Source: Escherichia coli
Lineage (GTDB): Bacteria > Pseudomonadota > Gammaproteobacteria > Enterobacterales > Enterobacteriaceae
DNA: 64,000 nt
NCBI RefSeq assembly: GCF_009931435.1
Contig: NZ_CP043414.1
Reading direction: 5' to 3' (one strand)
Under the pieces are notes generated by a model. That model ran no database searches. It was not told where the DNA came from and saw only the letters and a program-made list of their open reading frames with translations. Shown here piece after piece: positions 23,685 to 53,770 of the stretch. Position numbers and translations under genes: made by a program. Positions within the stretch are counted from its first letter, which is position 1, and each line of letters opens with the position of its first letter.

Positions 23685-24275
<591 letters not shown>

Positions 24276-26039: not shown

Positions 26040-26195
26040 TGTAAACCTTAACTTAACACTGTGATAGATATTAGACCATTGATGATAACCAATACAAGTC
26101 ATACTATTACGCCGTTCTCGATATGAACACAAATGCCAGTTGCGGATAATAGAAATGATATTTAAATCTGTTTAGGCAAATCCCTGGAGCTTGAA

Positions 26196-27116
26196 ATGAA
26201 AACGGTTTCGATAAAACACACTTACTGGGATATAGCTGCTGATATCTATTTCCCTGACGATTTTAATAGTGAAAAAAAGTATCCTGCCATTATCAGTGCC
26301 CATCCAATTGGAAGCTGCAAAGAACAGACATCGGGTAGTGTGTATGGTGCCGCCCTGGCAAAAGCTGGCTTTATCGTCATTGCTTTTGATGCCAGTTTTC
26401 AGGGAAGCAGCGGTGGAGAACCGCGTTATCTGGAAGATCCAACAATGCGAGTAAAAGACTTCAGCATTGTCGTTGATTACCTTACCACCTTACCTTACGT
26501 TGATGCCGGGCGTATTGGTGTACTGGGTATTTGTGGTGGAGGTGGATATGCCATTAATGCCGCAATGACAGAACGTCGGATTAAAGCCATTGGTACTGTC
26601 ACGGGTGCTAACTACGGGCGTCTTATGCGTGAGGGATTTACAGCGTTTAATCCTATCGGAGCACTCGAAGCAATGGCGCAACAAAGAACAGACGAAGCTA
26701 ACGGCGCAAAACTTCGCGTAGATGATTTGCTCCCTTCTTCTCCGGAAGCAGCTCTTGAAGCGGGATTAACAGAAATAGACCTTTTTGAAGCAACAGAATA
26801 TTATCGTTCGCCACGAGGCTGTGCGCCTAATGGGGTAAATCGTTCGCTATTTTCACATCAGACTGTTGCCGTGGGCTGGGATGCTTTTCATCTTGCAGAA
26901 GTCCTGTTAACTCAACCACTAATGGTTGTAGTGGGCGATAGAGTGGGCGCTTTTGGTGCCTATCGTGACGGCTGCGAAATTATTGGTCGTGCAGCCTCAA
27001 AACATAAAGAGTTGGTCGTGGTTGAAGGTTATTCACATTACGACCTGTATGATAAGCCAGAACCTGTGAAACAGGCGCTCGATAAATTAATTCCTTTTTA
27101 CAAAACACATTTGTAA
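26196..27116 (+). CDS. alpha/beta-fold hydrolase, no signal peptide
   Basis: 306-aa ORF with nucleophile-elbow-like LGICGGGGYA; paralogous to the ORF at 45817..46953. Confidence 0.8.
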   Translation: MKTVSIKHTYWDIAADIYFPDDFNSEKKYPAIISAHPIGSCKEQTSGSVYGAALAKAGFIVIAFDASFQGSSGGEPRYLEDPTMRVKDFSIVVDYLTTLPYVDAGRIGVLGICGGGGYAINAAMTERRIKAIGTVTGANYGRLMREGFTAFNPIGALEAMAQQRTDEANGAKLRVDDLLPSSPEAALEAGLTEIDLFEATEYYRSPRGCAPNGVNRSLFSHQTVAVGWDAFHLAEVLLTQPLMVVVGDRVGAFGAYRDGCEIIGRAASKHKELVVVEGYSHYDLYDKPEPVKQALDKLIPFYKTHL

Positions 27117-27288
27117 TAACCTTGCAGGGAGATTCATTATCTCCCTGAGATTTATCCTTTATTGACTACACGACAATAATAAAATTACTCAAAAAGAATT
27201 CTATTAAAGGAAAAAAGCATCAAAAAGTAGCAACTCAACTTATTAAGATTATACGCATTAAAATCAGATAAACATTTGAGGTATTGTT

Positions 27289-28431
27289 ATGATAAATAAA
27301 CACCCATCATTGTTTTCTCCTTTTATGCTGACAGAAAAAATAAAGCTACGTAATCGTATCGTTATGGCCCCTATGACGACCTGGTCAGCTAATCCTGATG
27401 GAACCATCTCTGAGCAAGAACTCGAATTTTATAAACGTCGCTCACAAAATGTTGGTTTAGTAATAACAGGATGCACCTATGTCACGCCAAGCGGCATTGG
27501 GTTTACTCATGAATTTGCCGCATATGACGACCGTTTCATTAACAGCCTTGAAAAGTTAGCTGCTGCAGCCAAAAGTGGCGGTGCTCCGGCTATTTTGCAG
27601 ATTTTCCACGCCGGTAATAAAGCCATCCCGGAGCTTGTGCCAAATTACGATGTTATTAGTGCCAGCGCATCAAGCGTAAAATCTGGTGACTTTATGAAGA
27701 GAGTGGTACAAAGCAGGGAAATGACTGAAAACGAAATTCAGGAAACCATTAGAGCATTCGGAGATGTCACAAAAAGGGCGATTAAAGCAGGTTTTGATGG
27801 CGTTGAACTTCATGGTGCGCACGGATTCCTTCTGCAGAATTTCTTCTCCCCTCTATTTAACCAGCGTAATGACCGATGGGGAGGAGATCTTGAAGGACGT
27901 ATGCGCTTCCCGCTGGCCGTATTACAGGAAGTAAAAAATGTAGTCTATGAATATGCGAAAAAGCCCTTTGCCATCGGTTACAGAATATCTCCTGAAGAAT
28001 CTGTAACAGGGGGGCTGCGGATAGAGGATACTTATAAACTCCTTGATCGGCTCATTTCATCCGGTATTTCGTATATACATACCTCGCTGGTCAGTATTAA
28101 CGATAGCTACCCTGTTGAGTCGCCAAATGGCCCCCGAACTATTGAATTGATTTTAAATCATATTGCAGGCAGAGTGCCGGTAATCGCCGCAGGTAAAATA
28201 CGCACACCTTCTCAGGCTCAAGAAGCAATTTCCGCTGGCCTGCCACTTGTTGCGATCGGTAAAGGGCTGGTGATAAATCCAGAATGGGTGACTTTAGCTG
28301 AATCAGGTAGAAGTCATGAAATTCAAACAGCCCTTAATCCACAACGCGTTCCTGAATTAACCATTCCGGATAAACTATGGGATCAAATTCAGGCATCGAA
28401 AGGAACTGGCTGGTTTCCGTTAATGGATTAA
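27289..28431 (+). CDS. NADH:flavin oxidoreductase (Old Yellow Enzyme family)
   Basis: 380-aa ORF; N-terminal LRNRIVMAPMTT and HGAHGFLLQNFFSP motifs typical of OYE/NemA-like enzymes. Confidence 0.85.
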   Translation: MINKHPSLFSPFMLTEKIKLRNRIVMAPMTTWSANPDGTISEQELEFYKRRSQNVGLVITGCTYVTPSGIGFTHEFAAYDDRFINSLEKLAAAAKSGGAPAILQIFHAGNKAIPELVPNYDVISASASSVKSGDFMKRVVQSREMTENEIQETIRAFGDVTKRAIKAGFDGVELHGAHGFLLQNFFSPLFNQRNDRWGGDLEGRMRFPLAVLQEVKNVVYEYAKKPFAIGYRISPEESVTGGLRIEDTYKLLDRLISSGISYIHTSLVSINDSYPVESPNGPRTIELILNHIAGRVPVIAAGKIRTPSQAQEAISAGLPLVAIGKGLVINPEWVTLAESGRSHEIQTALNPQRVPELTIPDKLWDQIQASKGTGWFPLMD

Positions 28432-28903
28432 ATATCTATTACTCTCCCGAGAGTAAAACTATCAAACCAATGAGTAACCGATACAGCCTCGCAAATTCTT
28501 TCAGATAATTAACCCGTCACTGCGGCACGTTCTCTCATAAGGCGTGCCTGCTGTGTAATCCAGTATGTATCCGGCATACTTGACGGTTTAATAGAACTCA
28601 ATTCCTTTCCCAGGTAACCAACAACGATATCTTGTATAACACCCCAGGAGATACGACATTATGATGAGATGAGGTATGCTCCTCAGCGCCAATCAACGCC
28701 AGGGCTGGGCCAGTTTTGAGATCAGACTCATTCCCGGACTGACTTCAGGCGACATATATCAATGACGTTGGGGCAATAAAAGATAGCCGATGTAATACAT
28801 CTATTCAAATTTGTGATACATGTCAAAAAATTGGTTGACCAAACTCGTTATTTATATAAGGGCACTTACGAAGTGCACTCTTTTTTAAAGCGAGGAAGTA
28901 CCA

Positions 28904-29005
28904 ATGAAAGAGAATAAAGTACAGCAAATCAGTCATAAACTGATTAATATCGTTGTTTTTGTCGCAATTGTAGAATACGCCTATTTATTTCTCCATTTCT
29001 ATTAA
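28904..29005 (+). CDS. ykgR: 33-aa hydrophobic small protein (likely YkgR by synteny)
   Basis: ATG at 28904 preceded by GAGGAAG; MKENKVQQISHKLINIVVFVAIVEYAYLFLHFY has a single TM-like segment; lies just upstream of ykgM. Confidence 0.5.
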   Translation: MKENKVQQISHKLINIVVFVAIVEYAYLFLHFY

Positions 29006-29047
29006 TAACGGCAATAAACTGTTCACTTCAGTGATATTTAAAATATG
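28940..29047 (+). repeat. dispersed repeat, copy A (second copy at 48263..48369, about 94% identical)
   Basis: By-eye alignment of about 108 nt shows roughly 6 mismatches and 1 indel. Confidence 0.7.
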
Positions 29048-29340
29048 CATCCTCTCCCTTTTTTTTAAGTGATTATTATATCCGTGGGAGAGGAATACAC
29101 GCTATCAGGTAATCAATCAAACTGCGATAAATCATCGGCCAGTAAAGTGGAGATAGCCTCCATTCTCGAAAAATTCATACTCTCAGCGAAACCATCATCA
29201 ATCACTCATCCAGGCGTTTATGGGAGCGTCGCCAATGGCTGCTAACAATGCCAGACTTCCCCGTTGCCGAAATTCCACATACCACAAATGGTCACAGGGA
29301 TTGGGTGTTGAAATGATCCGGATGAGCATGTATCTTTACG

Positions 29341-29358
29341 GTTATGTTATAACATAAC
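29341..29358. promoter_or_regulatory. Zur box upstream of ykgM
   Basis: Perfect 18-bp palindrome GTTATGTTATAACATAAC centred 17 bp upstream of the ykgM start; resembles the Zur operator. Confidence 0.7.
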
Positions 29359-29366
29359 AGGTAAAA

Positions 29367-29633
29367 ATGATGAAACCCAATATCCATCCTGAGTATCGTA
29401 CTGTGGTGTTCCACGACACCAGCGTTGATGAGTACTTTAAAATCGGCTCGACTATCAAAACAGACCGTGAGATTGAGCTGGATGGCGTAACGTATCCGTA
29501 CGTAACAATTGATGTCTCTTCGAAATCGCACCCGTTCTATACAGGGAAGCTGAGAACAGTGGCATCAGAAGGAAATGTTGCACGGTTCACCCAACGTTTT
29601 GGTCGTTTTGTTAGCACGAAAAAGGGGGCGTGA
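29367..29633 (+). CDS. ykgM: ribosomal protein L31 paralog (type B, zinc-independent)
   Basis: 88-aa [22 protein letters not shown]... with L31 signature and no CxxC zinc ribbon. Confidence 0.92.
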
Positions 29634-29773
29634 TGAAAGTCCTTAACTCTCTGCGTACCGCAAAAGAACGCCATCCAGACTGTCAGATTGTGAAGCGAAA
29701 AGGACGGCTGTATGTGATTTGTAAATCTAATCCACGTTTTAAGGCCGTTCAGGGGCGTAAGAAAAAGCGTTGA
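29633..29773 (+). CDS. ykgO: ribosomal protein L36 paralog
   Basis: Not in the track (below size cutoff). ATG overlaps the ykgM stop (TGATG); translates to [46 protein letters not shown], 46 aa. Confidence 0.88.
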
Positions 29774-29807
29774 TTCATAATTCGCCGGATTAACGATATT
29801 TGTCTGA

Positions 29808-30035
29808 TTAATAATCAGACCGGATTAATGTTGGTGTATTGATTACACCAACATTAATTTTCCTGGAAATATATTCTTTAAGTTCATTTAAAGCCAACTG
29901 CCTGACGTTTCTCTCCGAATATTCCATTATATTAATGTTGATTTGTTGACCAACTTCGCCCCTGTATGCTGGTATCAACTCTCTTTTAGACTGAACAAGC
30001 CACTCCGCCCCCTCCCTTTGCGGAGCAGCCTGCAT
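29808..30035 (-). CDS. hypothetical 75-aa protein (ykgL-like by position)
   Basis: Track ORF only; overlaps the ykgMO terminator hairpin, so it may be spurious. Confidence 0.3.
   Translation of the reverse strand: MQAAPQREGAEWLVQSKRELIPAYRGEVGQQININIMEYSERNVRQLALNELKEYISRKINVGVINTPTLIRSDY
29824..29858 (+). terminator. ykgMO terminator hairpin
   Basis: ATTAATGTTGGTGTA-TTGAT-TACACCAACATTAAT, a perfect 15-bp inverted repeat followed by TTTTCC. Confidence 0.5.
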
Positions 30036-30791
30036 TTACACTCAAACTGTTAAGATGATAAATGTGGTAAATCTGTTGGTACTAACATAAAAACGTTTAC
30101 GCCACAGGAACAGCCTGATCCACCGGTAACCCCATCGCCGACGTTCGAGTGCCAGTTAGAGTAACGCGCACAGATGACTGCACGCAGTGCCCTGTCAAAG
30201 AGGCCATCGTTCCTGTGACAGCTGGCAGCCTTCGTTTAACTTCACTTAATTTGGCTCTTGGGGGGGCTTACCGAACAGATGACGTAGTCACACCTATTCA
30301 ATTTTTCACCACTTATTGGAGTAAACACCCATAACCATTTTGTGCGGCATGTTAATCCATTAAAACACCTTATTTATTGTCAAATCTTCTTTAATGATGG
30401 TCAATAATAGTTTTATGTTCTATTTATTATCATTAAAACTTGTTTTTTTACTAGTCGAGCACAAAACGCATTAAGACTATTCCTAACACCTCAGGGCAAA
30501 GTTCCTGGCTAATATAAAATGCAAGTAAGAATTGAACGTTATATTGCCAATAACCTTATGAAACTGAATGTCTTTTTCTTCTTATCAAAAAAGCAATATT
30601 TTCATTTTTAGTAAATATTGACTTAACCATGGAATTCCTTTTCTGTTCACATATTGACACTCATCAGGAAAAAAACATAAATTTAAGCCCAATCGAAAAT
30701 AATTAAAACTTAATCTCGTTTAACCTATATTGATATGTGCTACGTATCTTATTTACTTCCGATTTACTAACAACACTGAATGTACTTGTAA

Positions 30792-40255: not shown

Positions 40256-41208
40256 AGGCGTTTACCTATGAACGTGTGAACACCCCTGCCGAGGCGGCAC
40301 TTAGCGCTCAGCGCGTACCCGGCGCAAAATTTATCGCTGGCGGGACCAATCTGCTGGACCTGATGAAGCTGGAAATTGAAACGCCAACCCACCTTATCGA
40401 TGTGAACGGGCTCGGGCTCGATAAGATTGAAGTGACCGACGCGGGTGGGCTGCGCATCGGCGCACTGGTACGGAACACCGACCTGGCGGCTCACGAGCGC
40501 GTGCGTCGTGATTACGCGGTACTCTCCCGCGCTCTGCTCGCTGGCGCGTCTGGTCAGTTACGTAATCAGGCAACCACCGCAGGTAATCTGCTCCAGCGCA
40601 CGCGCTGCCCCTATTTTTACGACACCAATCAGCCCTGCAATAAGCGCCTGCCCGGGAGCGGCTGCGCGGCACTTGAAGGCTTTAGCCGTCAGCACGCGGT
40701 GGTAGGCGTAAGCGAAGCCTGCATTGCCACCCATCCGAGCGATATGGCGGTCGCAATGCGGTTGCTGGATGCGGTGGTGGAAACCATCACGCCGGAGGGA
40801 AAAACTCGCAGTATCACACTGGCTGATTTTTATCACCCACCGGGGAAAACGCCGCACATTGAAACCGCCCTGCTTCCCGGTGAGCTTATCGTTGCGGTGA
40901 CGTTACCTCCGCCGCTCGGCGGAAAACATATCTACCGCAAGGTGCGCGATCGCGCCTCCTACGCCTTTGCCCTGGTATCGGTCGCGGCGATTATTCAGCC
41001 TGACGGCAGCGGGCGCGTCGCGCTGGGCGGAGTAGCACATAAGCCCTGGCGCATTGAGGCTGCGGATGCTCAGCTATCCCAGGGGGCGCAGGCCGTGTAT
41101 GACGCGCTGTTCGCCAGCGCCCATCCCACCGCTGAAAATACCTTTAAACTCCTGTTGGCGAAGCGAACGCTTGCCTCCGTACTGGCTGAAGCGAGGGCAC
41201 AGGCATGA
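40252..41208 (+). CDS. paoB: aldehyde oxidoreductase FAD-binding subunit PaoB
   Basis: 318-aa ORF, translationally coupled (ATGA overlap) to paoA. Confidence 0.93.
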
Positions 41209-43403
41209 AATTTGATAAACCCGCAGGGGAAAACCCGATCGATCAGCTGAAGGTTGTCGGTCGTCCCCATGACCGCATCGACGGACCGCTGAAAACTACC
41301 GGCACGGCACGCTACGCCTACGAATGGCATGAAGAAGCCCCCAACGCCGCCTATGGCTATATCGTCGGTTCCGCCATTGCCAAAGGACGCCTCACCGCCC
41401 TAGATACGGACGCCGCGCAAAAAGCGCCGGGCGTACTGGCTGTCATTACCGCCAGTAACGCTGGGGCACTCGGCAAAGGCGACAAAAACACCGCCAGGCT
41501 GTTAGGCGGCCCCACTATTGAGCACTATCATCAGGCCATTGCGCTGGTAGTGGCCGAGACCTTCGAACAGGCGCGAGCGGCGGCCTCGCTGGTGCAGGCG
41601 CACTATCGCCGTAATAAAGGAGCTTACTCCCTGGCGGACGAGAAACAGGCCGTCAGTCAGCCGCCGGAAGACACGCCCGATAAAAACGTTGGTGACTTTG
41701 ACGGGGCTTTCACCTCCGCTGCAGTGAAAATTGATGCTACATACACGACCCCGGACCAGAGCCATATGGCGATGGAGCCGCATGCCTCGATGGCCGTCTG
41801 GGATGGAAATAAGCTTACCCTCTGGACCTCAAATCAGATGATTGACTGGTGCCGCACCGATCTGGCAAAAACGCTGAAAGTGCCCGTGGAGAATGTGCGT
41901 ATTATCTCCCCGTATATCGGCGGAGGGTTTGGCGGCAAGCTATTCCTGAGAAGCGATGCGCTGCTGGCGGCCCTCGCCGCCCGTGCGGTGAAACGTCCGG
42001 TTAAAGTGATGCTCCCCCGCCCCACTATTCCCAATAACACCACGCACCGCCCCGCCACCCTTCAGCACCTGCGTATCGGTGCCGACCAGAGCGGGAAAAT
42101 CACCGCTATCTCACATGAAAGCTGGTCCGGAAACCTGCCCGGCGGCACGCCGGAAACGGCGGTACAGCAAAGCGAATTACTCTACGCAGGGGCAAACCGT
42201 CATACCGGCCTGCGGCTCGCCGCGCTTGATTTGCCGGAAGGGAACGCCATGCGTGCGCCCGGCGAAGCCCCCGGTCTGATGGCGCTCGAAATCGCGATCG
42301 ACGAACTGGCGGAAAAAGCGGGCATCGATCCCGTCGAGTTTCGCATCCTGAATGACACTCAGGTTGACCCCGCCGACCCGACGCGCCGCTTCTCTCGCCG
42401 TCAGCTTATCGAGTGCTTGCGCACCGGAGCGGATAAATTTGGCTGGAAGCAGCGCAACGCTACACCCGGACAGGTGCGCGACGGGGAGTGGCTAGTCGGC
42501 CACGGTGTTGCGGCGGGCTTTCGCAATAATCTGCTGGAAAAATCGGGTGCTCGGGTTCACCTCGAACAAAATGGCACCGTTACCGTAGAAACGGACATGA
42601 CCGACATTGGCACCGGCAGCTACACCATTCTGGCCCAGACGGCAGCGGAAATGCTTGGCGTACCGCTGGAGCAGGTTGCGGTTCACCTCGGCGATTCCAG
42701 TTTCCCGGTTTCTGCGGGTTCTGGTGGACAATGGGGCGCGAATACCTCCACCTCCGGCGTTTACGCCGCCTGTGTGAAACTTCGCGAAATGATTGCCTCG
42801 GCGGTCGGGTTTGATCCTGAGCAGTCGCAGTTTGCCGACGGCAAGATTACCAACGGTACCCGAAGCGCCACGCTACATGAGGCCACCGCAGGCGGCAGAC
42901 TGACAGCGGAAGAGAGCATTGAGTTCGGCACTCTCAGCAAGGAGTACCAGCAATCGACCTTTGCCGGGCATTTTGTGGAGGTCGGCGTGCATAGCGCGAC
43001 GGGAGAAGTTCGGGTCCGGCGTATGCTCGCCGTGTGCGCAGCGGGGCGCATTCTGAATCCGAAAACTGCACGCAGCCAGGTCATTGGCGCGATGACTATG
43101 GGCATGGGCGCGGCACTGATGGAGGAGCTGGCGGTAGATGACCGTTTGGGCTACTTCGTTAATCACGATATGGCGGGGTATGAGGTGCCGGTTCATGCGG
43201 ATATCCCAAAACAGGAGGTGATTTTCCTGGATGATACCGACCCCATCTCCTCCCCGATGAAGGCCAAAGGTGTCGGTGAGCTGGGCCTGTGCGGCGTGAG
43301 CGCGGCTATCGCCAACGCGGTGTATAACGCCACCGGTATTCGGGTACGGGATTATCCCATCACTCTGGATAAGCTGCTCGATAAACTGCCGGATGTGGTT
43401 TAA
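41205..43403 (+). CDS. paoC: aldehyde oxidoreductase molybdopterin subunit PaoC
   Basis: 732-aa ORF, xanthine dehydrogenase-family large subunit. Confidence 0.95.
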
Positions 43404-43412
43404 GGAGGAACA

Positions 43413-44369
43413 ATGTCATACTCGCTTTTTGACAAAGACGAGCACTGGCATAAGCCAGAGCAGGCGTTTCTCACCGATGACCACCGGACCATTCTGCGCT
43501 TCGCCGTAGAGGCGCTAATGTCCGGTAAAGGAGCGGTGCTGGTGACGCTGGTGAAGATACGCGGCGGCGCGGCGCGCCCGCTCGGAGCACAGATGGTGGT
43601 GCGCGAAGATGGTCGTTACTGCGGTTTTGTCTCTGGCGGCTGCGTGGAGGCCGCTGCCGCTTTTGAAGCGCTGGAGGTGATGGGCTCAGGCTGCGATCGC
43701 GAAATTCGCTATGGCGAAGGTTCGCCGTGGTTTGACATCGTTCTGCCCTGCGGCGGTGGGATCACGCTGACGCTCCATAAACTACGCTCGGCACAGCCTC
43801 TGCTCGCCGTGCTGAACCGCCTGGAACAGAGAAAACCGGCGGGTCTGCGCTACGATCCGCAAGCTCAATCGCTGGTGTGCCTGCCCACGCAAACCCGAAC
43901 GGGCTGGAATCTCAATGGCTTTGAGGTGGGGTTCAGGCCATGCGTCAGGCTGATGATTTACGGACGTTCTCTTGAGGCGCAGGCAACCGCGAGTCTTGCA
44001 GCAGCCACAGGCTATGACAGCCATATCTTCGATATTTTTCCGGCCTCAGCCAGCGCTCAGATCGATACCGATACGGCGGTCATTTTGCTGTGCCATGATC
44101 TCAACCGGGAGCTGCCAGTGTTGCAGGCCGCGCGAGAGGCAAAACCCTTTTATCTCGGCGCATTGGGCAGCTATCGAACCCACACGTTACGTCTGCAAAA
44201 GCTCCACGAGCTAGGATGGTCCAGGGAGGAGACAGCGCAAATCCGGGCACCCATCGGGATATTCCCCAAAGCCCGGGATGCGCATACTCTGGCACTCTCC
44301 GTGCTGGCAGAAGTCGCTTCTGTACGTCTCCATCAGGAGGAGGATTCATGCCTGCCCCCGTCGTCGTGA
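43413..44369 (+). CDS. paoD: molybdenum cofactor insertion chaperone PaoD (XdhC family)
   Basis: 318-aa ORF after paoC. Confidence 0.9.
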   Translation: MSYSLFDKDEHWHKPEQAFLTDDHRTILRFAVEALMSGKGAVLVTLVKIRGGAARPLGAQMVVREDGRYCGFVSGGCVEAAAAFEALEVMGSGCDREIRYGEGSPWFDIVLPCGGGITLTLHKLRSAQPLLAVLNRLEQRKPAGLRYDPQAQSLVCLPTQTRTGWNLNGFEVGFRPCVRLMIYGRSLEAQATASLAAATGYDSHIFDIFPASASAQIDTDTAVILLCHDLNRELPVLQAAREAKPFYLGALGSYRTHTLRLQKLHELGWSREETAQIRAPIGIFPKARDAHTLALSVLAEVASVRLHQEEDSCLPPSS

Positions 44370-44477
44370 TCCTTGCGGCCGGGCGTGGAGAGCGCTTTCT
44401 CGCCTCCGGGGGAAATACCATAAATTAAGAGAAAAATCTGCAGTAGCCGTTTTAGAAAATCACCTAAATCGTTTAAA

Positions 44478-44501
44478 AGAGCGCCCAACCCATAGTGGGC
44501 G
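44478..44501. terminator. hairpin between convergent paoD and the MFS gene
   Basis: AGCGCCCA-ACCCATAG-TGGGCGCT inverted repeat. Confidence 0.35.
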
Positions 44502-44547
44502 CTCATCGCCTTGTGTAACTTATTCAGCAACGCGCGCCCTCGCCGGA

Positions 44548-45741
44548 CTAAAGCGCACCGGCCTTCTGGCGTGCGGTAACAAAGGTCAGTACGCCAGCGC
44601 AAAGGAGCAGCACGCTACTCATAGCAAACGTGCTCTGCCAGCCAAGGCGGTCAAACACAATGCCTCCTGCCGTTGATCCAAGGGCGATGGCGAGCTGAAT
44701 CACCGCGACCATGAGCCCGCCTCCGGCTTCGGCGTTGTCAGGCAACGTACGCGCAATCCATGTCCACCATCCGGTTGGCGCGGCGGTGGCCAGCATGCCC
44801 CAGAGTCCTAACAGCAGCGAGACCGTCCAGACGTGATGCCCGATAAGCATCAGACCGATAGCAATGACGGCCATAAGTCCGGGTATGGCCATCAGCGTGG
44901 GGTAGAATTTTCTGTTGAGAAATGCCGAAACAACCAGCGTGCCAATAAAACCGGCCACGCCGATAATCAGCAAAATCAACGACAAGCCTGAGGAATTAAC
45001 CCGTGTCACCGACTCCAGAAACGGGCGCACATAGGTGAATAGCGCAAACTGCCCCATGAAAAACAGGCCACAAGCTATCATGCCGACCACAACCATGCGG
45101 CGGCTAAATAAGCGGAATACCGTGCCAAATGACGTGTGGCTTTTATTCGCATCCATACTGGGCAGGCTGATGCACTGCCAGATAAAGGCGACAACCGCCA
45201 TGGGCACCAGGCACAAGAAAGCGCCTCGCCATCCGACCGTAGCCCCCAGATAGCTTCCCAGCGGCGCGGCCACGACCGTCGCCAGCGCATTACCGGCATT
45301 GAAAATCGCCAGCGCACGCGTGACCTGTTGCTGCGGCACCAGACGAATCGCCGTTGCCGCAGACATCGACCAGAATCCGCCAATAGCCACACCAATCATC
45401 GCACGACCGACCATATACATCAGATAACTGGAAGCCAGCGCAATAATAAGCCCCGAGACGGCCATCAGAACCGTCATCCCCAGCAGCAGGAACTTACGAT
45501 TCATCTTTCCAGCTAGCGTTGAAAGCGTCAGGCTGGTCAGAACCGCCAGCGCGCCGGAGATAGCAATCCCCTGCCCTGCCAGCCCCTCCGTCACGCCTAA
45601 ATCGCGGGTAATCGGCGTGAGCAGGCTGACGGGCATAAATTCAGAAGCAATCAGCACAAACACGCACAGGGTCATGGCAAAAATACCGCCCCAGTATGCG
45701 TGCTGATGATGAGGTGATGGTGTTTGGCTTAGTGTCGACAT
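44548..45741 (-). CDS. MFS transporter (12-TM, drug/sugar efflux-like)
   Basis: 397-aa highly hydrophobic ORF with MFS-like loop motifs. Confidence 0.85.
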   Translation of the reverse strand: MSTLSQTPSPHHQHAYWGGIFAMTLCVFVLIASEFMPVSLLTPITRDLGVTEGLAGQGIAISGALAVLTSLTLSTLAGKMNRKFLLLGMTVLMAVSGLIIALASSYLMYMVGRAMIGVAIGGFWSMSAATAIRLVPQQQVTRALAIFNAGNALATVVAAPLGSYLGATVGWRGAFLCLVPMAVVAFIWQCISLPSMDANKSHTSFGTVFRLFSRRMVVVGMIACGLFFMGQFALFTYVRPFLESVTRVNSSGLSLILLIIGVAGFIGTLVVSAFLNRKFYPTLMAIPGLMAVIAIGLMLIGHHVWTVSLLLGLWGMLATAAPTGWWTWIARTLPDNAEAGGGLMVAVIQLAIALGSTAGGIVFDRLGWQSTFAMSSVLLLCAGVLTFVTARQKAGAL

Positions 45742-45816
45742 AGTGAAATTTCACAAAGATCAGGATAAAAGCCACCGGCCATAGACCGGTGGCTTTGCAT
45801 CAATTCAGGAGAGGTT

Positions 45817-46953
45817 TTATTTCAGTTTGGTCTGGAAAAATTGTTCGAACTTCGCGAAAGGTATTTTTCCGGCCACGTTATCGTACAGGTCCACGTGATT
45901 TGCCCCTGGTACCACCACCAGCTCTTTGTCTTTACTGCCAACCGCCTTGTAAGCATCTTCAGCAAAATAGCGTGAATGCGCTTTCTCACCGGTCACAATC
46001 AGCGTCGGAATGGTGATTTCACTGGCGTAGCTCAACAGCGGCATATTCATAAATGACAGCGGCATCGTTGCCGTCCACGCCCCGGTAGAGTTAACGGAAC
46101 GTTCGTGGAAGCCGCGCGGCATGCGATAGTAGTCAAAGAACTCTTTCAGTACCGGATGAGGATTTGCCGGCAGCGTTTCTGGCAGAATACGCTCGCCCGC
46201 ACTGACCTTGCCGTTGCTGTCGACATTAATATCATGACCACCGTGAGCGAACGTTCCGCTCTGCGCATCCTTCCAGCGCTGTTCATTCAGATATTGCAGA
46301 ACAGCACGACGGTCGGCGGTAGAATAACGGTCTTTGCCATCCCCCACACCATGGCCCATCGCCCGGCTCATGTCATACATCACGCTGGTAGCTACCGCTT
46401 TAACGCGGGTATCCATCGCCGCGTCGTTCAGCGCCATGCCGCCCCAGCCACAAATACCGAGCAGCCCGATACGGTTGCGATCTACCTCTTTTTGCAGCCC
46501 TAAGAAATCCACCGCCGCGCTGAAATCTTCAGTGTTGATATCCGGTGAAGCGACGTTTCGCGGATAGCCGCCGCTTTCCCCGGTGTAAGAAGGATCGAAC
46601 GCCAGGGTAACAAACCCTCGTTCCGCCAGCGTCTGCGCATACAGGCCGCTGGATTGCTCTTTCACCGCGCCAAATGGCCCACTGACCGCAATCGCCGCCA
46701 GCTTGCGATCGCCACGGTCTTTAGGCAGGTAAAGATCGCCCACTAAGGTGATGCCATATCGGTTCGGGAACGAGACTTTACGGTGATCGACTTTCTGGCT
46801 CTCGGCGAACGTTTTATCCCATTTATCTGTCATGGACACAGGGGCATTAGGATTGGTTGAATCAGCATAACTCATTGTCGTGACTCCACTTAATGATGCG
46901 AAAAGCAGCATGGTCGGCATCGCGATTTTTAGCGTTCGGGTGAAGGCTTTCAT
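45817..46953 (-). CDS. secreted alpha/beta-fold hydrolase
   Basis: Track ORF 45817..46974; probable start at MKAFTRTLKIAMPTMLLFASLSGVTTMSYA (signal peptide); LGICGWGGMA motif; paralog of 26196..27116. Confidence 0.8.
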   Translation of the reverse strand: MKAFTRTLKIAMPTMLLFASLSGVTTMSYADSTNPNAPVSMTDKWDKTFAESQKVDHRKVSFPNRYGITLVGDLYLPKDRGDRKLAAIAVSGPFGAVKEQSSGLYAQTLAERGFVTLAFDPSYTGESGGYPRNVASPDINTEDFSAAVDFLGLQKEVDRNRIGLLGICGWGGMALNDAAMDTRVKAVATSVMYDMSRAMGHGVGDGKDRYSTADRRAVLQYLNEQRWKDAQSGTFAHGGHDINVDSNGKVSAGERILPETLPANPHPVLKEFFDYYRMPRGFHERSVNSTGAWTATMPLSFMNMPLLSYASEITIPTLIVTGEKAHSRYFAEDAYKAVGSKDKELVVVPGANHVDLYDNVAGKIPFAKFEQFFQTKLK

Positions 46954-47139
46954 AAAAATCCCCATAAAAAACAACAGAGAGATACAGGTTTCCGACGGAC
47001 AACACTGCGGTGCTTTACTTTGATGGGGTCATTATAGTGAGCAGAATTAGTGCTGATTAGGGGGCGATTAATGCTAAGATTAATACCATATTGTTATAAA
47101 TTAATGCGGAGATTGCCGGCATGAAGGGGGGATGTTTCA

Positions 47140-48024
47140 ATGGCGAAAAGGGAGAACTACAACGAGCTGTACCTGTTTATGCAGGTGGTGCGGGAAGGCA
47201 GCTTTACCGCAGCGGCTCAGCGGCTGGGTCTTGCTCAGTCAGGAGTCAGCCGTTCTGTTCGCGAGCTTGAAGAAAGGCTCGGCGTCCAGCTGCTGGTGCG
47301 CACCACGCGTAAACTGTCGCTGACGCAAGCAGGCGAGCAGCTCTACCAGAAGACGGCATCTGGATTTGAAATGTTAGATCTTGGGCTTGCCACACTGGCG
47401 CACTATCGAGAGACGCCCTCCGGCACGGTGCGTATCAATGCCAGCCAGCACGCGATTGATAAATGCCTGCTGCCAAAGCTGGCGGTATTTAAACAGCGAT
47501 ATCCTGATATCCGGCTTGAACTGATAAATGAGAGCCGGTTCGTCGATATCATCGAGGAAAGATTCGATGCTGGTGTCCGCCTGGGGCCTGAAGTCGGCCA
47601 GGGTATGGTCGCGGTACGCATCACGCCCGATATGGAGATGGCAATTGTGGGGACTCCGGAACATTTTCGTCGCTATGGTTTTCCGCAAACCCCGGCGGAT
47701 TTAAAGGCGCATCCCTGTATCGCCTATCAGTTTGCCGACGGCAGCGTATACCAGTGGGAACTCAATCAGGATGATAAAAAAATCACTCATCGCCCTGAAG
47801 GGCAATGGGCCCTATCCGACAGCTATATGGAAGCAGAAGCCGCACGGCTGGGCCTCGGATTGGCCTATGTTCCTGTTGAACTGGTTGCGGATGATTTAGA
47901 ACACGGTAAGCTTATCAGAGTGTTGCAGCGTTACAGCCTGCGAATGGAGGGATTGTTTCTCTATTACCCTCATCGCAACGTCTCCCCCGCTCTGCGGATG
48001 GTCATTGATACATTGAAAATCTGA
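47140..48024 (+). CDS. LysR-family transcriptional regulator
   Basis: 294-aa ORF with LysR HTH (GSFTAAAQRLGLAQSGVSRSVRELEERL). Confidence 0.85.
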   Translation: MAKRENYNELYLFMQVVREGSFTAAAQRLGLAQSGVSRSVRELEERLGVQLLVRTTRKLSLTQAGEQLYQKTASGFEMLDLGLATLAHYRETPSGTVRINASQHAIDKCLLPKLAVFKQRYPDIRLELINESRFVDIIEERFDAGVRLGPEVGQGMVAVRITPDMEMAIVGTPEHFRRYGFPQTPADLKAHPCIAYQFADGSVYQWELNQDDKKITHRPEGQWALSDSYMEAEAARLGLGLAYVPVELVADDLEHGKLIRVLQRYSLRMEGLFLYYPHRNVSPALRMVIDTLKI

Positions 48025-48262
48025 ACGTTAACAACGACCGACTCTTCACTGTGCAATATTGTGTCAGGTAGTCACTCTGCGTTCAATTCCAGGGGCCGCT
48101 TTGAGCGAGAAAGAGCGGACTTATCTGTACAAGGGGACTATCCAGCAATGGAGATCACCCATAAGAAAAAAGTACCTGGCTCCCTCGACAACCTTCATCC
48201 GGGAATTTAGCCTCAATCAACATTTTTATATCTGTCAGGTTACTTCATTATGAAAACCGATC

Positions 48263-48369
48263 AATATCGTTGTTTTTGTTGCAATAGTAGAATACGCCTA
48301 TTTATTCCTCCATTTCTATTAATAACGGCCATAAACCGTTCACTTCACTGATATTTAAAATATGCATCC
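48263..48369 (+). repeat. dispersed repeat, copy B (decayed ykgR-like segment)
   Basis: About 94% identical to 28940..29047; the upstream part differs by a roughly 30-nt deletion plus a 1-nt insertion, which destroys the ykgR reading frame. Confidence 0.7.
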
Positions 48370-48734
48370 TTTTCCTGCTTTTCAAGTTGTTCAGCGGCGT
48401 AAGAAAACGTATTAAATATGAATTCGACGATTTAACCATTTCTGTCTGATTGGTAATCATCTGTGATTAATGCTGGTCTATTGATTACGCCAGCATTAAC
48501 CGCTTAGGGATGTATTCTTCCTGATCATATACATCCCTCGAAAAAGAGAGAAAATAAAACTGTGTCCAATATTACTCTACCACTCCAGACCGAAGTATCG
48601 GTAGAATTAGCAGAACGACTGGTACAATAGATTGGGATAGCGTCATTTGTCAGGTATTCCATTGCCTGACAAATGACAATTTTGAGTCAATAGACGTGCT
48701 TCTTGATCATGTCTTACAAATTATACCATGAACC

Positions 48735-49007
48735 TTATGAAGCATCATTTTTACTGACTGGTGTTAACTTTGCTATCATATAAACTCTGTTCTTAAAAAA
48801 CGCGCCCAGAATTTTATATGATTTCCCTTGTTTTTCTGCCTGTAAAGAAATTTCTTTTTCAGTGCTGTTAATGGTTGAACCGACGGCAGTAATCTTTTTG
48901 GCGACGCTACTGAATGATAATAAAGACAGTGTAACCACAACAATTAAAGAACAGATAGTATTCACGTTAATTCTCCTGACAATTGAGAGGGTGAGTTTTA
49001 TATACAT
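48735..49007 (-). CDS. small secreted DUF1471-like protein
   Basis: 90-aa ORF with hydrophobic N-terminus; loose resemblance to YhcN/BhsA-type proteins. Confidence 0.45.
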   Translation of the reverse strand: MYIKLTLSIVRRINVNTICSLIVVVTLSLLSFSSVAKKITAVGSTINSTEKEISLQAEKQGKSYKILGAFFKNRVYMIAKLTPVSKNDAS

Positions 49008-49176
49008 AGGTATTAAACATGAGTCATATTTACTCCAAGAGAAAACACTCCTTCTGTAATTAAACCTTCATCTCCTTCGGGGTGAGCAATACATAATGCA
49101 TCTTGCTATGCAAAACAGGTGGATATCAATTTTCCTCCCGACCTATTTAATAAAACGTGAATATAAAAGTTATTCT

Positions 49177-49914
49177 TCAGTTTGCAGATGCAGTAGGTCT
49201 GATGGTAATTTCGGTTGTATCAACGCTTTCGGGAGATTCAATAATATGCCTTACAGCACGGGCAATATCCGCGGGTTGAAGTGCAACAGAACGGTAGGCG
49301 TTCATTGACTTCATGGTTTCCACATGGGTAATGGTTGAAGCCAGTTCACTTTCTACAACCCCAGGATTTACGCAGGTCACACGGATTTTCGAGCTTTCCT
49401 GCCGTAAGCCATCAGAAATAGCCCGTACTGCAAATTTTGATGCGCAATAGACTGCGCCTGTGGGCACAACAGAAAGGGCACCAATAGAACCAAGATTGAT
49501 TATCTGACCGGAACCCTGTGCTTCCATCACCGGAAGTACAGCGCCAATTCCCCAAAGTACGCCTTTGATATTCACGTCAATAGTGAGCTCCCATTCATTT
49601 TGTTTTCCTGCTGCAAGCGGTGAAAGCGGCATAACGCCCGCATTATTGATAAGAACATCAACTCGCCCCCAGCTATCCAGCGCTGCTTGCACGAAATCTG
49701 CCATGGACTGTCGGTCTGTGACATCCAACTCCCGCGCTTTAGCAATTCCTCCTGCGCGGCAGATTTCTTTTGCAATGGCTTCGATACGCTCAAGTCTGCG
49801 TGCTCCCAGTAAAACCTTTGCACCTGCCGTTCCCAGCTCTCTGGCAATACCTTCCCCAATACCACTTGATGCGCCGGTGATTAATATGACCTTATCCATT
49901 ACGTTCTCCTTCAA
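49177..49914 (-). CDS. short-chain dehydrogenase/reductase (SDR)
   Basis: 245-aa ORF with TGASSGIG Rossmann motif and NNAG. Confidence 0.88.
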   Translation of the reverse strand: MKENVMDKVILITGASSGIGEGIARELGTAGAKVLLGARRLERIEAIAKEICRAGGIAKARELDVTDRQSMADFVQAALDSWGRVDVLINNAGVMPLSPLAAGKQNEWELTIDVNIKGVLWGIGAVLPVMEAQGSGQIINLGSIGALSVVPTGAVYCASKFAVRAISDGLRQESSKIRVTCVNPGVVESELASTITHVETMKSMNAYRSVALQPADIARAVRHIIESPESVDTTEITIRPTASAN

Positions 49915-49997
49915 ATGTGTTCGGAGAGAGAATAGAACTTTATGATTGGTTCCAGTATCCTGCTTTCAATGTACTCAATGGTTAGCGGCATTAAACA

Positions 49998-50897
49998 ATG
50001 AAAATCGATCTTAATCTTTTACCCATTTTTATCGCGGTAGCAGAAGAGAGTAATTTCAGTAAAGCCGCCGCACGACTGGGCGTTACCCGTTCAGCGGTCA
50101 GTCAGGGAATAAGACGTCTTGAAGATGCATTCGGGACAATGCTTGTAATGCGGACCACGCGCTCAGTTAATTTGACGGAAGCGGGAGAACGGCTGCATAA
50201 ATCGTTGTCATTACCTTTATCCGGTATTGAGGCAGCGTTCGAAGAGATGGTCTCTGACCATGTACCACGTGGACATCTCAGAATCGCGGTGACGTCGATA
50301 GCAGAAGAATTTCTTTCAGGTCCGCTAATCGCTTCGTTTGCAGCTGCCAATCCAGCCGTTACGCTTGATATTGTTGTCACGGATGAGGAATTCGATATCG
50401 TTGCCGCAGGTTACGATGCTGGCGTAAGGCTCGGAGAGGTCATTGAAAAAGACATGATTGCTGTTCCCCTTACCGGTAAGCAGCGTGAGATGGTCGTTGC
50501 CTCTCCCTCCTATCTCGCAGCCAACAGCACACCTGTTCATCCGCGCGAACTTGTGAATCATAAGTGTATCGGCTGGCGTCAGTCCCCGGAGGTTGCGCCT
50601 TATCGCTGGCCATTTGAAGAAAACGGTAGAGCTTTCGACCTTGCGATTGAACCGCAGATTACGACGAATGATCTGCGTCTGATGTTGAGGCTGGCTCTTG
50701 CCGGCGGAGGAATAACAATTGCCACTCAGGAAACGTTCAGGCCATATATTGAAAGCGGTAAGCTTGTATCGCTGCTTGATGACTTTCTTCCACAATTTCC
50801 GGGCTTCTATCTGTATTTCCCACAGCGTCGCAATATTGCACCAAAGCTCCGCGCCCTGATTGACCACGTCAAGGAATGGCGGCAGCAATTGGCTTAA
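49998..50897 (+). CDS. LysR-family transcriptional regulator
   Basis: 299-aa ORF with LysR HTH; divergent from the SDR gene. Confidence 0.88.
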   Translation: MKIDLNLLPIFIAVAEESNFSKAAARLGVTRSAVSQGIRRLEDAFGTMLVMRTTRSVNLTEAGERLHKSLSLPLSGIEAAFEEMVSDHVPRGHLRIAVTSIAEEFLSGPLIASFAAANPAVTLDIVVTDEEFDIVAAGYDAGVRLGEVIEKDMIAVPLTGKQREMVVASPSYLAANSTPVHPRELVNHKCIGWRQSPEVAPYRWPFEENGRAFDLAIEPQITTNDLRLMLRLALAGGGITIATQETFRPYIESGKLVSLLDDFLPQFPGFYLYFPQRRNIAPKLRALIDHVKEWRQQLA

Positions 50898-51024
50898 ATG
50901 TCTGCACCTGCACTGCCTGATGTCAGAACAGTATTTTGAGAAATTGCCAGGGTTACAATGGCACAAATACGGCACAGGAGGAAAACGTGGTGTAATTGAA
51001 TGTGAGGTAACTTATTGATTTAAA

Positions 51025-51100
51025 TGGTGCCGATAATAGGAGTCGAACCTACGACCTTCGCATTACGAATGCGCTGCTCTACCAACTGAGCTATATCGGC
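51025..51100 (-). tRNA. thrW: tRNA-Thr (anticodon CGU)
   Basis: Reverse complement reads GCCGATATAGCTCAGTTGGTAGAGCAGCGCATTCGTAATGCGAAGGTCGTAGGTTCGACTCCTATTATCGGCACCA, a 76-nt cloverleaf with encoded CCA. Confidence 0.95.
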
Positions 51101-51214
51101 CCTGAAAGGACATGTTCACGAGCGTGAATCACGGTGGACAAGGTTAAAACTAACCGGGCGATGCGTCAATGGCCTTGTGAATCAAATGGCTACTTTTGCA
51201 TCACCCGGTTTTAT

Positions 51215-52468
51215 TTATGCACGAATGGTGTAATCACCAATGCCGATCCACTTGTAGGTGGTCAGAGCTTCCAGCCCCATTGGGCCGCGCGCGTGGAGTT
51301 TTTGTGTGCTTACCGCAACTTCCGCACCCAGACCAAACTGGCCGCCGTCGGTAAACCGCGTAGAGGCGTTAACGTAAACAGCGGAGGAATCCACTTCGTT
51401 GACAAAACGCTGGGCATTACGCATATCGCGGGTCAGGATCGCATCGGAGTGTTGCGTACCGTGTTCACGAATATGGGCGATGGCATCGTCAAGATCGCTG
51501 ACGATTTTGACGTTCAAGTCTAATGACAGGAACTCATCGTCATACTCTTCGGCTTTAACAGCCACCACCTTCGCGGGGCCTGCCTGCAACTGCGCCAGCG
51601 CAGTTGCGTCAGCGTGTAATGTCACGCCGCTTTCCGCCATTTGCTTGCTTAATGCGGGCAGGAAGCTATCTGCGATGTTTTTATTTACCAGCAACGTTTC
51701 TACCGTATTACACGTGCTCGGGCGCTGAGTTTTCGCGTTGACAATCACTTTCAATGCTTCAGCGATCTCTGCACTTTCATCAACGTAAATATGGCATACG
51801 CCTATACCACCTGTGATTACCGGAATCGTCGACTGCTCGCGGCACAGTTTATGCAACCCAGCCCCGCCGCGTGGGATCAGCATGTCGATGTATTTATCCA
51901 TACGCAGCAGTTCACTGACCAGCGCACGGTCAGGATTATCAATCGCCTGCACGGCACCCGCCGGTAAACCGCAGGATTTCAGGGCGTCCTGAATCACCGC
52001 CACCGTTGCAGCGTTAGTGCGACAGGTTTCTTTGCCGCCACGCAGAATCACTGCATTACCGGTTTTCAGGCACAGCGAAGCGACATCAACCGTCACGTTC
52101 GGGCGCGCTTCATAAATCACGCCAATCACCCCCAGCGGCACGCGACGGCGTTCCAGGCGCAGGCCACTGTCCAGCACGCCACCATCAATCACCTGCCCCA
52201 CCGGATCGGCGAGGTTACACACCTGGCGCACATCATCGGCAATGCTTTTCAGCCGTGCGGGCGTCAGTGCCAGGCGGTCAAGCATCGCTTCGCTAAGGCC
52301 ATTGGCACGCGCGTCAGCAACATCCTGGGCGTTAGCATTGAGGATGCTTTCGCTTTGTGCTTCCAGTTCATCGGCGATTTTTTCCAGCACGCGATTTTTT
52401 TCGCGACTGGAGAGTTGCGCTAAATTATACGAGGCTTGCTTCGCGGCAATGCCCATTTGTTCCAGCAT
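51215..52468 (-). CDS. proA: gamma-glutamyl phosphate reductase
   Basis: 417-aa ORF; proBA operon. Confidence 0.96.
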
Positions 52469-52478
52469 CGGCTGCTCC

Positions 52479-53582
52479 TTAACGGGTAATCATATCATCA
52501 CGGTGAACGGCAACCGGGCCGTATTCATATCCCAGTATTGCATCAATTTCTTGCGAGTGGTGTCCGGCAATACGGCGTAATGCATCGCTGTTGTAACGAC
52601 TGACGCCGTGGGCGATATCGCGACCTTCGAGGTTGCAAATGCGAATGACTTCACCACGCGAGAAGTTGCCGGTTACGCTTTTAATGCCTTTCGGCAACAG
52701 GGAGCTGCCGCGTTCAAGAATGGCGGCGGTTGCCCCTTCATCTACCGTGATTTCACCCGCAGGTGGCGCACCGAAAATCCAACGTTTGCGGTTTTCAAGC
52801 GGAGTCGCCTGGGCATGGAACAGCGTACCGACGGAAATACCTTCCATCACATCACCAATGACACCCGGCTTACTGCCCGCGGCAATAATGGTGTCGATAC
52901 CCGCACGGCAAGCCACGTCAGCGGCCTGCAATTTAGTGCTCATGCCGCCGGTTCCAAGACCTGAAACGCTGTCACCGGCAATCGCGCGCAGTGCGTCATC
53001 AATGCCGTACACATCTTTAATCAGTTCTGCCTGCGGATTGCTACGCGGGTCAGCGGTATACAAACCTTTTTGATCGGTCAGCAACAACAGTTTATCGGCA
53101 CCTGCCAGAATCGCCGCCAGCGCCGAAAGGTTATCGTTATCGCCGACTTTAATCTCTGCAGTAGCGACAGCATCGTTCTCATTAATTACCGGGACAATGT
53201 TGTTATCGAGCAGCGCACGAAGGGTATCCCGCGCGTTAAGGAAGCGTTCACGGTCTTCCATATCAGCACGAGTTAGCAGCATCTGCCCGACGTGAATGCC
53301 ATAAATCGAAAACAGCTGTTCCCACAGTTGAATCAGTCGACTCTGCCCTACCGCCGCCAGAAGTTGTTTCGAGGCGATAGTCGCTGGCAGTTCCGGGTAA
53401 CCCAGGTGCTCACGTCCGGCGGCAATCGCCCCCGACGTCACAATTACAATCCGATGCCCGGCGGCATGTAGCTGCGCGCACTGGCGAACAAGTTCAACGA
53501 TATGGGCACGGTTCAGGCGGCGCGATCCGCCTGTTAGCACACTGGTGCCGAGTTTTACCACCAGCGTCTGGCTGTCACTCAT
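52479..53582 (-). CDS. proB: glutamate 5-kinase
   Basis: Track ORF 52479..53669; start at [19 protein letters not shown] gives 367 aa. Confidence 0.96.
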
Positions 53583-53770
53583 GATTCTCTGCCATTCAAT
53601 TTTAGGGAAAATGATATCAAACGAACGTTTTAGCAGGACTGTCGCCGGTTGCCAACCATCTGCAAGCAAAGCATGGCGTTTTGTTGCGCGGGATCAGCAA
53701 GCGTAGCGGCAGTTGTTTACGCTTTTATTACAGATTTAATAAATTACCACATTTTAAGAATATCATTAAT

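Follow-up and report, generated by a model that had tools for sequence, protein, structure and literature searches.

The closest described counterparts of the locus considered here are the thrW regions of Escherichia coli K-12 and of O157:H7 Sakai. In K-12, the cryptic prophage CP4-6 (262898-297205) is followed by the pseudogene yagP, which overlaps the end of paoD; in Sakai the order is thrW, Sp1, Sp2, yagP (ECs_0305, full length), ECs_0306, ECs_0307, ECs_0309, ECs_0310, ECs_0311 (the gene of a "transport protein" in that annotation) and paoD. A 46-nt attachment (att) core lying inside the tRNA gene has been published for SfI, SfII, SfV, SfX, P22 and DLP12 (PMC3636060). The DNA analysed here, referred to as the window, is a single strand of 64,000 nt from an E. 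coli genome (NCBI RefSeq GCF_009931435.1, contig NZ_CP043414.1), in which thrW and paoD are separated by a block of about 6.6 kb. We conclude with good confidence that this block is the undeleted native chromosomal flank between the thrW attB site and paoD, and that it is a layered mosaic; this is a structural and evolutionary account. The configuration as such is known, being already annotated in public genomes (O157 and other strains). The 3′ end of thrW points toward the block, and three features define that end of the flank:

51025-51100, minus strand: thrW, tRNA-Thr(CGT), intact (ARAGORN; Rfam tRNA, 71.8 bits), the sole tRNA in the window

51025-51070, minus strand: unoccupied attB core of 46 nt, ATTCGTAATGCGAAGGTCGTAGGTTCGACTCCTATTATCGGCACCA, at the thrW 3′ end, present once only

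50956-51024, plus strand: integrase relic and int-attP spacer (matches to phages SfX and HK542)

The occupancy of the site was examined by several independent searches. A 25-mer from the thrW 3′ end occurs a single time, with no second copy in the 64 kb at up to three mismatches (0 expected). When the whole tRNA was compared to the window by blastn-short only chance 9-14-mers were returned, the top match inside the block being 9 nt long (E=13), and no direct or inverted repeats bounding the block were found. Neither K-12 IntF nor the CP4-type integrase of strain 2020CK-00188 gave any match in the window by tblastn. PHROGs assigned the block to generic major facilitator superfamily (MFS), LysR, short-chain dehydrogenase/reductase (SDR) and esterase families only, with no integrase PHROG and no phage-specific family; a search of the block against a phage collection returned only the 69-nt relic and look-alikes of the hydrolase cassette described below; and an Rfam scan of 44000-51500 found the tRNA alone. 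Since there is one tRNA, no second att copy and no integrase or phage protein, the thrW attB core is unoccupied in the window. These searches bear out an initial annotation of this DNA, which had seen no integrase, phage gene or att duplicate at thrW; the comparison that it proposed, for a partial direct repeat of the thrW 3′ end in the flank, yielded only chance matches and no refutation. Its statement on the integrase needs one amendment, in that there is no integrase gene but an 18-codon relic of one adjoins thrW. A tRNA-integrated prophage or island of the CP4-6, Sp1/Sp2 or SfX type was considered at the block and rejected, there being no integrase gene, tRNA-end repeat, or phage or island cargo.

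The relationship of the block to thrW islands is clear from genomes that have both. In 2020CK-00188, the closest relative for the block (98.9% identity), the block stops at the identical base; next come about 46 nt that repeat part of the thrW 3′ end, then an integrase gene and a CP4-like island. Because the same block lies beyond the thrW islands in both 2020CK-00188 and Sakai, it is best regarded as flank and not as a substitute for a prophage. The population at large agrees: in a survey of 5426 complete E. coli genomes, some portion of the block is matched in 3635, 80% or more of it is kept in 429, and at least 391 of these 429 are without the empty junction. The view first put forward, that the block is present "instead of" a prophage, is contradicted on both counts.

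Comparison to K-12 shows what became of the block elsewhere. YagP of K-12 (113 aa) is 97% identical to residues 187-299 of the product of the thrW-proximal gene of the block, a LysR regulator (LysR2) whose gene is itself labelled yagP in the Sakai annotation. At the K-12 junction, paoD plus 50 bp is joined to CATAAGTG..., and the deletion corresponds to window 44420-50559, 6.14 kb, with roughly a CATAA microhomology at the junction; the 44420-50559 breakpoint is identical in sampled genomes with and without an island. The 6.14-kb interval is gone from K-12 and from most E. coli, leaving the yagP fragment. The K-12 pseudogene is thereby explained as the stump of a LysR regulator gene after a mapped deletion. 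The comparison with K-12 and other genomes suggested in the initial annotation places the block before the K-12 state, as YagP is the C-terminal 113 aa of LysR2. The block is 97-98.8% identical to that of Sakai, while paoC/paoD are 97.5-97.9% identical; the two levels of divergence are comparable, and therefore a long residence in the species fits. The block as a recent acquisition was rejected, since its inter-lineage divergence is about that of the neighbouring pao genes.

The 69 nt that adjoin thrW (50956-51024) match phage SfX at 91% (E 3e-17) and HK542 at 90% (E 1e-15), and the annotation of HK542 puts the matched stretch at the int stop and attP. The relic itself comprises 18 codons (50957-51010) and reads NGTNTAQEENVV, a stop, LNVR and a further stop. 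The C-terminus of HK542 Int is ...NGTNTAQEENVVYLNAR, and the last 12 residues before the relic's stop are identical; most of the differences before the stop are synonymous and the reading frame is preserved. K-12 carries the same relic, frameshifted, beside the CP4-6 attR. Since K-12 shares it, a lambdoid prophage with an integrase of the SfX/HK542 type was probably once resident in thrW and would later have been deleted, leaving these 18 codons.

The remaining features of the flank were called from the open reading frame (ORF) listing, the PGAP annotation of the 98.9%-identical genome 2020CK-00188 and NCBIfam:

44480-44503, strand not assigned: 8-bp GC-rich hairpin (AGCGCCCA-N8-TGGGCGCT), a possible terminator between the convergent paoD and MFS genes (read from the sequence)

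44531-48109, strand not assigned: horizontally shared LysR-hydrolase-MFS cassette, 3.6 kb (nucleotide identity to other genera)

44548-45741, minus strand: MFS transporter, 12 transmembrane segments, NepI-like (DHA1) (NCBIfam)

45817-46953, minus strand: alpha/beta hydrolase, 378 aa, PA2218/YcjY family, probably secreted (PDB homologues, weak Pfam matches)

47140-48024, plus strand: LysR regulator 1 (LysR1; ECs_0309 equivalent), divergent from the hydrolase-MFS operon (NCBIfam)

48254-48528, plus strand: ykgR/ykgO remnant (blastn, tblastn, PGAP)

48735-49007, minus strand: 90-aa ORF (ECs_0307 equivalent), hydrophobic at the N-terminus, in DNA of 35% GC (PGAP: hypothetical protein)

49177-49899, minus strand: SDR, a classical short-chain dehydrogenase/reductase (ECs_0306 equivalent; NCBIfam SDR models)

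49998-50897, plus strand: LysR regulator 2 (LysR2; ECs_0305 equivalent), the full-length counterpart of yagP in K-12 and divergent from the SDR gene (NCBIfam LysR models)

The block is flanked by paoC and paoD (41205-44369) on one side and, beyond thrW, by proA (51215-52468) and proB on the other. The gene list of the initial annotation agrees with the ORF, PGAP and NCBIfam evidence. The 44480-44503 hairpin was not flagged by a consensus terminator scan.

The mosaic nature of the flank follows from four things: the integrase relic, a three-part GC profile (segments of 55%, 35% and 49%), the ykgR/ykgO remnant and the shared cassette. Read from thrW to paoD, it consists of the relic, the SDR/LysR2 pair, about 1.1 kb of debris at 35% GC and the 3.6-kb cassette. 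The AT-rich stretch of about 1.1 kb holds both the ykgR/ykgO pseudo-copy and the 90-aa ORF. In the former, the last 22 ykgR codons are joined straight to the 3′ end of ykgO and downstream DNA; it matches K-12 by blastn at 88.8% over 134 nt and 74.5% over 145 nt, and by tblastn YkgR residues 12-33 are retained at 95%. It is not a complete 33-codon ykgR ORF, the upstream ATG being out of frame, and PGAP calls it an incomplete fragment. An intact ykgR-ykgM-ykgO locus is present at window 28340-30148, 19 kb from the remnant, and 48254-48528, to judge from these alignments, is a decayed partial duplicate of that locus, a pseudogene copy; the decayed ykgR/ykgO copy first reported here is thus upheld by blastn and tblastn against K-12 and by the ykgR fragment of PGAP. 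The 90-aa ORF fared differently from its first description as a "DUF1471-like" small secreted protein, as Pfam gave no match at E<=0.001 and the NCBIfam BhsA model scored 18.5 bits against a cut-off of 90. It was also considered as a paralogue of YkgL, given its position after the ykgO remnant, and rejected as it has no similarity to YkgL. The AT-rich non-coding core also contains a perfect-looking hairpin with a 15-bp stem at 48642-48677 (GTCATTTGTCAGG...CCTGACAAATGAC), followed by AATTTTGAGT.

On the thrW side of this stretch, the nearest solved structure to the SDR is 3TFO (E=1e-120). LysR1 and LysR2 each give full-length matches to many NCBIfam models of LysR-type transcriptional regulators (LTTRs); for LysR2 all matches are under the equivalog cut-offs, and proteins near-identical to it carry PF00126 and PF03466. 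The 90% cluster of LysR2 homologues contains E. coli only, with Enterobacter and Pantoea next at about 91%. The SDR-LysR2 pair recurs in Enterobacter cloacae at 91% protein identity, at an unrelated locus that is not near thrW, and is a portable two-gene unit.

The cassette has a wider distribution. At the nucleotide level it is 91.8% identical to that of Kluyvera genomosp. 1 and 86.7% identical to that of Serratia marcescens UMH3, a genome whose proA is only 71.7% identical; copies of about 75% identity are present on plasmids of Klebsiella, Kosakonia, Salmonella and Pantoea, and the 90%-identity cluster of the hydrolase includes proteins of Citrobacter, Serratia and Salmonella. Because the nucleotide identity is far above that of core genes and copies lie on plasmids, the cassette is taken to circulate among Enterobacterales by horizontal sharing. 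In S. marcescens UMH3 (locus L005, 8438-12172) it lies directly 3′ of thrW, next to proA, with protein identities of 95%, 96% and 83%, in a patch of 49-55% GC within a genome of 60-66% GC; neither an att repeat nor an integrase was found in the 16 kb examined there. Further copies were seen in passing. On the Salmonella plasmids NZ_CP130617.1, NZ_CP130620.1 and NZ_CP130622.1 the cassette is accompanied by a YdgH/BhsA/McbA-like gene, which is a lead only; two Yersinia phage records of 33 kb (OR545056.1 and OR545057.1) contain a 75%-identical cassette annotated nepI / hypothetical / pgrR; Escherichia sp. ESNIH1 has two separate LysR1-hydrolase copies (loci L008 and L009) without the MFS gene, the hydrolase copies being divergent (88% identity); and some E. 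coli, for example NZ_CP147535.1, have a second, 78%-identical copy elsewhere. Among the matches listed in a scan of genome contigs for the hydrolase, no Escherichia other than E. coli and Escherichia sp. ESNIH1 appeared.

This mobility bears on the first alternative to a native flank, namely that the block consists, in large part or entirely, of cargo left behind by earlier thrW elements which lost their integrase and att sites. The integrase-gene relic directly at thrW, the three compositionally distinct segments, the recurrent independent deletions and replacements in the flank (see below), and a cassette that is shared horizontally, is found on plasmids and lies 3′ of thrW in the low-GC patch of S. 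marcescens UMH3 are all as would be expected from such an origin. However, the block retains neither an att repeat nor any further gene of a phage or island; Kluyvera, Enterobacter and other genera have the cassette away from thrW; the SDR-LysR2 pair is in an ordinary chromosomal context in E. cloacae; and the divergence of the block among E. coli lineages is about that of the pao genes. We therefore consider this origin possible but unlikely.

A second alternative is that the strain, or a recent ancestor, lost a thrW island cleanly, so that the empty site is derived. The empty state, defined by a contiguous junction of the LysR2 gene end, thrW and proA, was found in at least 947 of the 5426 genomes; in 38 of them it is combined with an intact LysR2, as in this window. 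O145:H28 accounts for most of these 38, the others being scattered isolates from animals and humans. It is thus rare for an empty thrW to be combined with an intact thrW-proximal LysR gene. An evenly spaced sample of the matching genomes fell into four types. The majority had a K-12-type remnant, some 8% of the block; the whole block was present in about 12% of matching genomes, and two further types had 69% and 62% of it. In the 69% type (RM14516) thrW is empty, and a second deletion of independent origin truncates LysR2. In the 62% type (MRSN346647) the cassette is kept but the thrW-proximal SDR/LysR2 part is replaced. The replacement in MRSN346647 (locus L087, 11089-17469) comprises a toxin-antitoxin pair (AbiEii/AbiEi), a gene for a reverse transcriptase of 1069 aa, an ash-family gene and, adjoining thrW, a fragment of an integrase; in the same genome a deletion fuses paoB and paoC. 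A recent loss would be consistent with the empty junction being confined to about 17% or less of the complete E. coli genomes, and with the island at the exact junction in 2020CK-00188, the closest relative for the block. Clean excision leaves no trace, however, and nothing in the window favours it, while the empty state is seen in several unrelated lineages (O145:H28, baboon isolates, poultry and cattle strains); on balance we find a recent loss rather improbable.

The function of the cassette can be approached from its three proteins, beginning with the hydrolase. Its homologues in the PDB are two structural-genomics proteins, PA2218 (2HDW; E=8e-125), which is close, and YcjY (5XB6; E=5e-44), and it is a paralogue of E. 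coli YcjY. Pfam gave weak matches to PETase, Abhydrolase_1 and DLH, that to DLH (PF01738) being partial and confined to residues 139-188 (50 residues; E=0.0017). By homology to these solved alpha/beta hydrolases the protein has the alpha/beta hydrolase fold. C168, in the motif G-I-C168-G-W-G, is a cysteine in all 81 of the family members compared, which span many phyla, and H353 and D194 are at least 97% conserved among the same 81; these three residues form a putative catalytic triad, with roles assigned from conservation. A cysteine nucleophile in this pattern would be the signature of enzymes of the dienelactone-hydrolase type and not of serine esterases. The N-terminus reads as a typical Sec signal, MKAF...SYA|DS. 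RefSeq/PGAP calls the hydrolase (window 45817-46974, minus strand) at 352 aa from MSYADS (locus L001, 7448-8506), which drops the signal-peptide-like N-terminus; because homologues of many genera are commonly 378 aa long, the RefSeq start is probably mis-called. The PA2218/YcjY family is very widespread, at 50-60% identity from Bacteroides to Campylobacter, and no activity was reported for PA2218 or YcjY in the literature searched. Nor were functional studies of ECs0305-0311 found there.

The MFS gene begins 75 nt downstream of the hydrolase gene and the two are probably co-transcribed. In NCBIfam the top scores of the MFS protein were 297 bits for NepI (NF007578; cut-off 584), 179 for the sugar transporter model PRK03545 and 135 for Cmx/CmrA; by these scores it is of the broad type of NepI but not NepI itself (297 < 584 bits). 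For LysR1 the best model was YafC, at 192 bits against a cut-off of 470, and it is not an equivalog of a named LTTR. The alignment of orthologous intergenic regions provided one further feature:

47031-47097, minus strand: candidate region controlling the hydrolase operon (12 orthologous intergenic regions aligned, that of Aeromonas among them)

Within it, a LysR-type box ATAAC-N5-GGTAT (T-N11-A) at 47083-47097 is conserved in the 12 orthologous regions, as is a TATAAT at 47031-47036, 46 nt downstream of the box. A T-N11-A dyad upstream of the promoter is the usual layout of the activator site for a LysR-type regulator, and the box at 47083-47097 is the likely binding site of LysR1. The neighbourhoods in the scan of genome contigs, where figures again refer to the matches listed, are consistent with this arrangement. 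LysR1 and the hydrolase were neighbours in 10 of 10 Enterobacterales loci, usually together with the MFS gene, and LysR-hydrolase(-MFS) neighbours were also found in Aeromonas, Pseudomonas, Luteimonas, Bosea, Brevundimonas, Paracoccus and others (alpha-, beta- and gamma-proteobacteria); the MFS gene adjoins the hydrolase in 19 of 80 loci. This conservation shows the LysR, hydrolase and MFS genes to be a genuine unit, maintained across taxa and equipped with a conserved LysR-type box, and the module recognised in the initial annotation stands on both grounds. By analogy, LysR2 probably controls the adjacent SDR likewise. In other phyla the recurrent neighbours are cupin, flavodoxin-like, acetyltransferase, cyclophilin-like and SDR proteins (cluster representatives labelled by eye). 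A neighbour mix of cupin, flavodoxin-like, acetyltransferase and SDR proteins may point to detoxification rather than catabolism.

A mechanism can be proposed in which LysR1 binds the ATAAC-N5-GGTAT box, which lies some 65 nt upstream of the promoter of the hydrolase, and would turn on the hydrolase-MFS operon upon a small-molecule signal; the periplasmic Cys-His-Asp alpha/beta hydrolase would then probably cleave an ester or lactone, and the NepI-like MFS pump would most likely export the compound or its product. The cassette may thus be inducible and combine the hydrolysis of an ester or lactone in the periplasm with efflux, a tentative proposal to which we give slightly less than an even chance. 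Alternatively, the unit could be catabolic, hydrolysing an external substrate and importing that substrate or its product, as would suit a hydrolase that is seemingly secreted and is encoded in an operon with an MFS gene under a LysR regulator. Some MFS relatives are indeed sialate, aromatic acid and galactonate symporters, but with E-values of only 1e-8 to 1e-10, whereas the three strongest matches are those to NepI, PRK03545 and Cmx/CmrA (chloramphenicol efflux), and no downstream catabolic enzymes are linked to the unit. Because the MFS protein resembles exporters, hydrolysis with efflux is likelier than uptake; the uptake function first suggested for the module runs counter to these top matches, all to exporter models, and a catabolic role seems to us doubtful.

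We return to the account of the locus as an undeleted, mosaic native flank. The initial annotation had proposed an unoccupied ancestral configuration, and this can be kept in part: the site is free and the block predates the K-12 state, but it is not pristine, as the integrase relic and the shared cassette demonstrate. Several points weigh against our interpretation. "Ancestral to E. coli" is deduced only from deletion logic and from levels of divergence among E. coli genomes; an empty attB looks the same whether the site was never re-occupied or was precisely excised; and the relic could in principle represent phage capture of host DNA, against which the preserved frame and the mostly synonymous changes argue. 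For the cassette, all NCBIfam equivalog cut-offs were missed, the signal peptide was judged by eye only, and consensus promoter and terminator scans of the flank were at chance level and were not used. A bolder version of the history, in which the flank is a graveyard of thrW-targeted insertions and the cassette a mobile detoxification unit that landed by thrW independently in Escherichia and Serratia, is in our view improbable, somewhat more so than either origin weighed above. That the full block is a later gain, the K-12-type junction being the older, is very unlikely because yagP is truncated.

Three other regions of the window deserve mention. proA/proB (51215-53669) are only 94.4-96.1% identical to K-12, Sakai, 2020CK-00188 and MRSN346647, with paoC/paoD at 97.5-99.9%; the divergence of these alleles, on the proBA side of the thrW hotspot, is unusual and may stem from recombination. 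About 4.65 kb at window 23685-28340, absent from K-12, falls, on the K-12 map, between ykgR on one side and ykgP/eaeH on the other and contains ORFs at 25113-26132 (minus strand), 26196-27116 (plus strand) and 27289-28431 (plus strand). Finally, window 18881-23134 (minus strand) holds an uninterrupted 1417-aa ORF whose upstream end adjoins DNA aligning to K-12 ykgP-eaeH (314.0-314.4 kb); judged from position only, it is probably an intact eaeH adhesin gene, eaeH of K-12 being a pseudogene disrupted by IS3.

The new points here are small: the origin of yagP, the rarity of an intact LysR gene beside an empty thrW (38 of 5426 genomes), the integrase relic, the mobility of the cassette and an orphan hydrolase family with a putative cysteine nucleophile. 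They have some practical consequences. Strains of this kind would be clean recipients for studying the integration of SfX/SfV-, P22- and CP4-type elements; the relic indicates that "empty" tRNA sites may bear scars of past occupants, which matters when they are used as ancestral references; and the cassette draws attention to a family of secreted Cys-hydrolases, uncharacterised though very widely conserved, which has a clear regulator and transporter as partners and could be deorphanised.

The locus can be set beside five known systems. With K-12 it shares thrW, the att core, the integrase relic and the 3′ end of the LysR gene (yagP), and it differs in that K-12 has the 34-kb CP4-6 and is without the SDR, the 90-aa ORF, the ykgR remnant, LysR1, the hydrolase and the MFS transporter. 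Sakai (ECs_0305-ECs_0311) shares seven features in order and orientation, the genes at 97-98.8% and the AT-rich core at 94.6% identity; there, however, thrW is filled by Sp1 (lambda-like) and Sp2 (P4-like), and the block lies 23.5 kb from thrW, to which it is here adjacent. To the lambdoid integrase and attP of SfX/HK542 the likeness extends over the 46-nt core and 69 further nt, but the relic has only 18 codons and a premature stop, and the remaining gene and the phage are absent. The hydrolase resembles dienelactone hydrolase, PA2218 and YcjY in its predicted alpha/beta fold, a cysteine in the nucleophile elbow G-x-C-x-G, and an invariant His and Asp; in contrast to dienelactone hydrolase it is about 120 residues longer, has an N-terminal signal peptide and gives only a marginal match to Pfam DLH. 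Lastly, the cassette resembles classical LTTR divergent units in its divergent regulator, its T-N11-A dyad about 65 nt upstream of the -10 and a regulator with helix-turn-helix and LysR substrate-binding domains, whereas LysR1 is no equivalog of a named LTTR and the regulation proposed for it here is a prediction from sequence.

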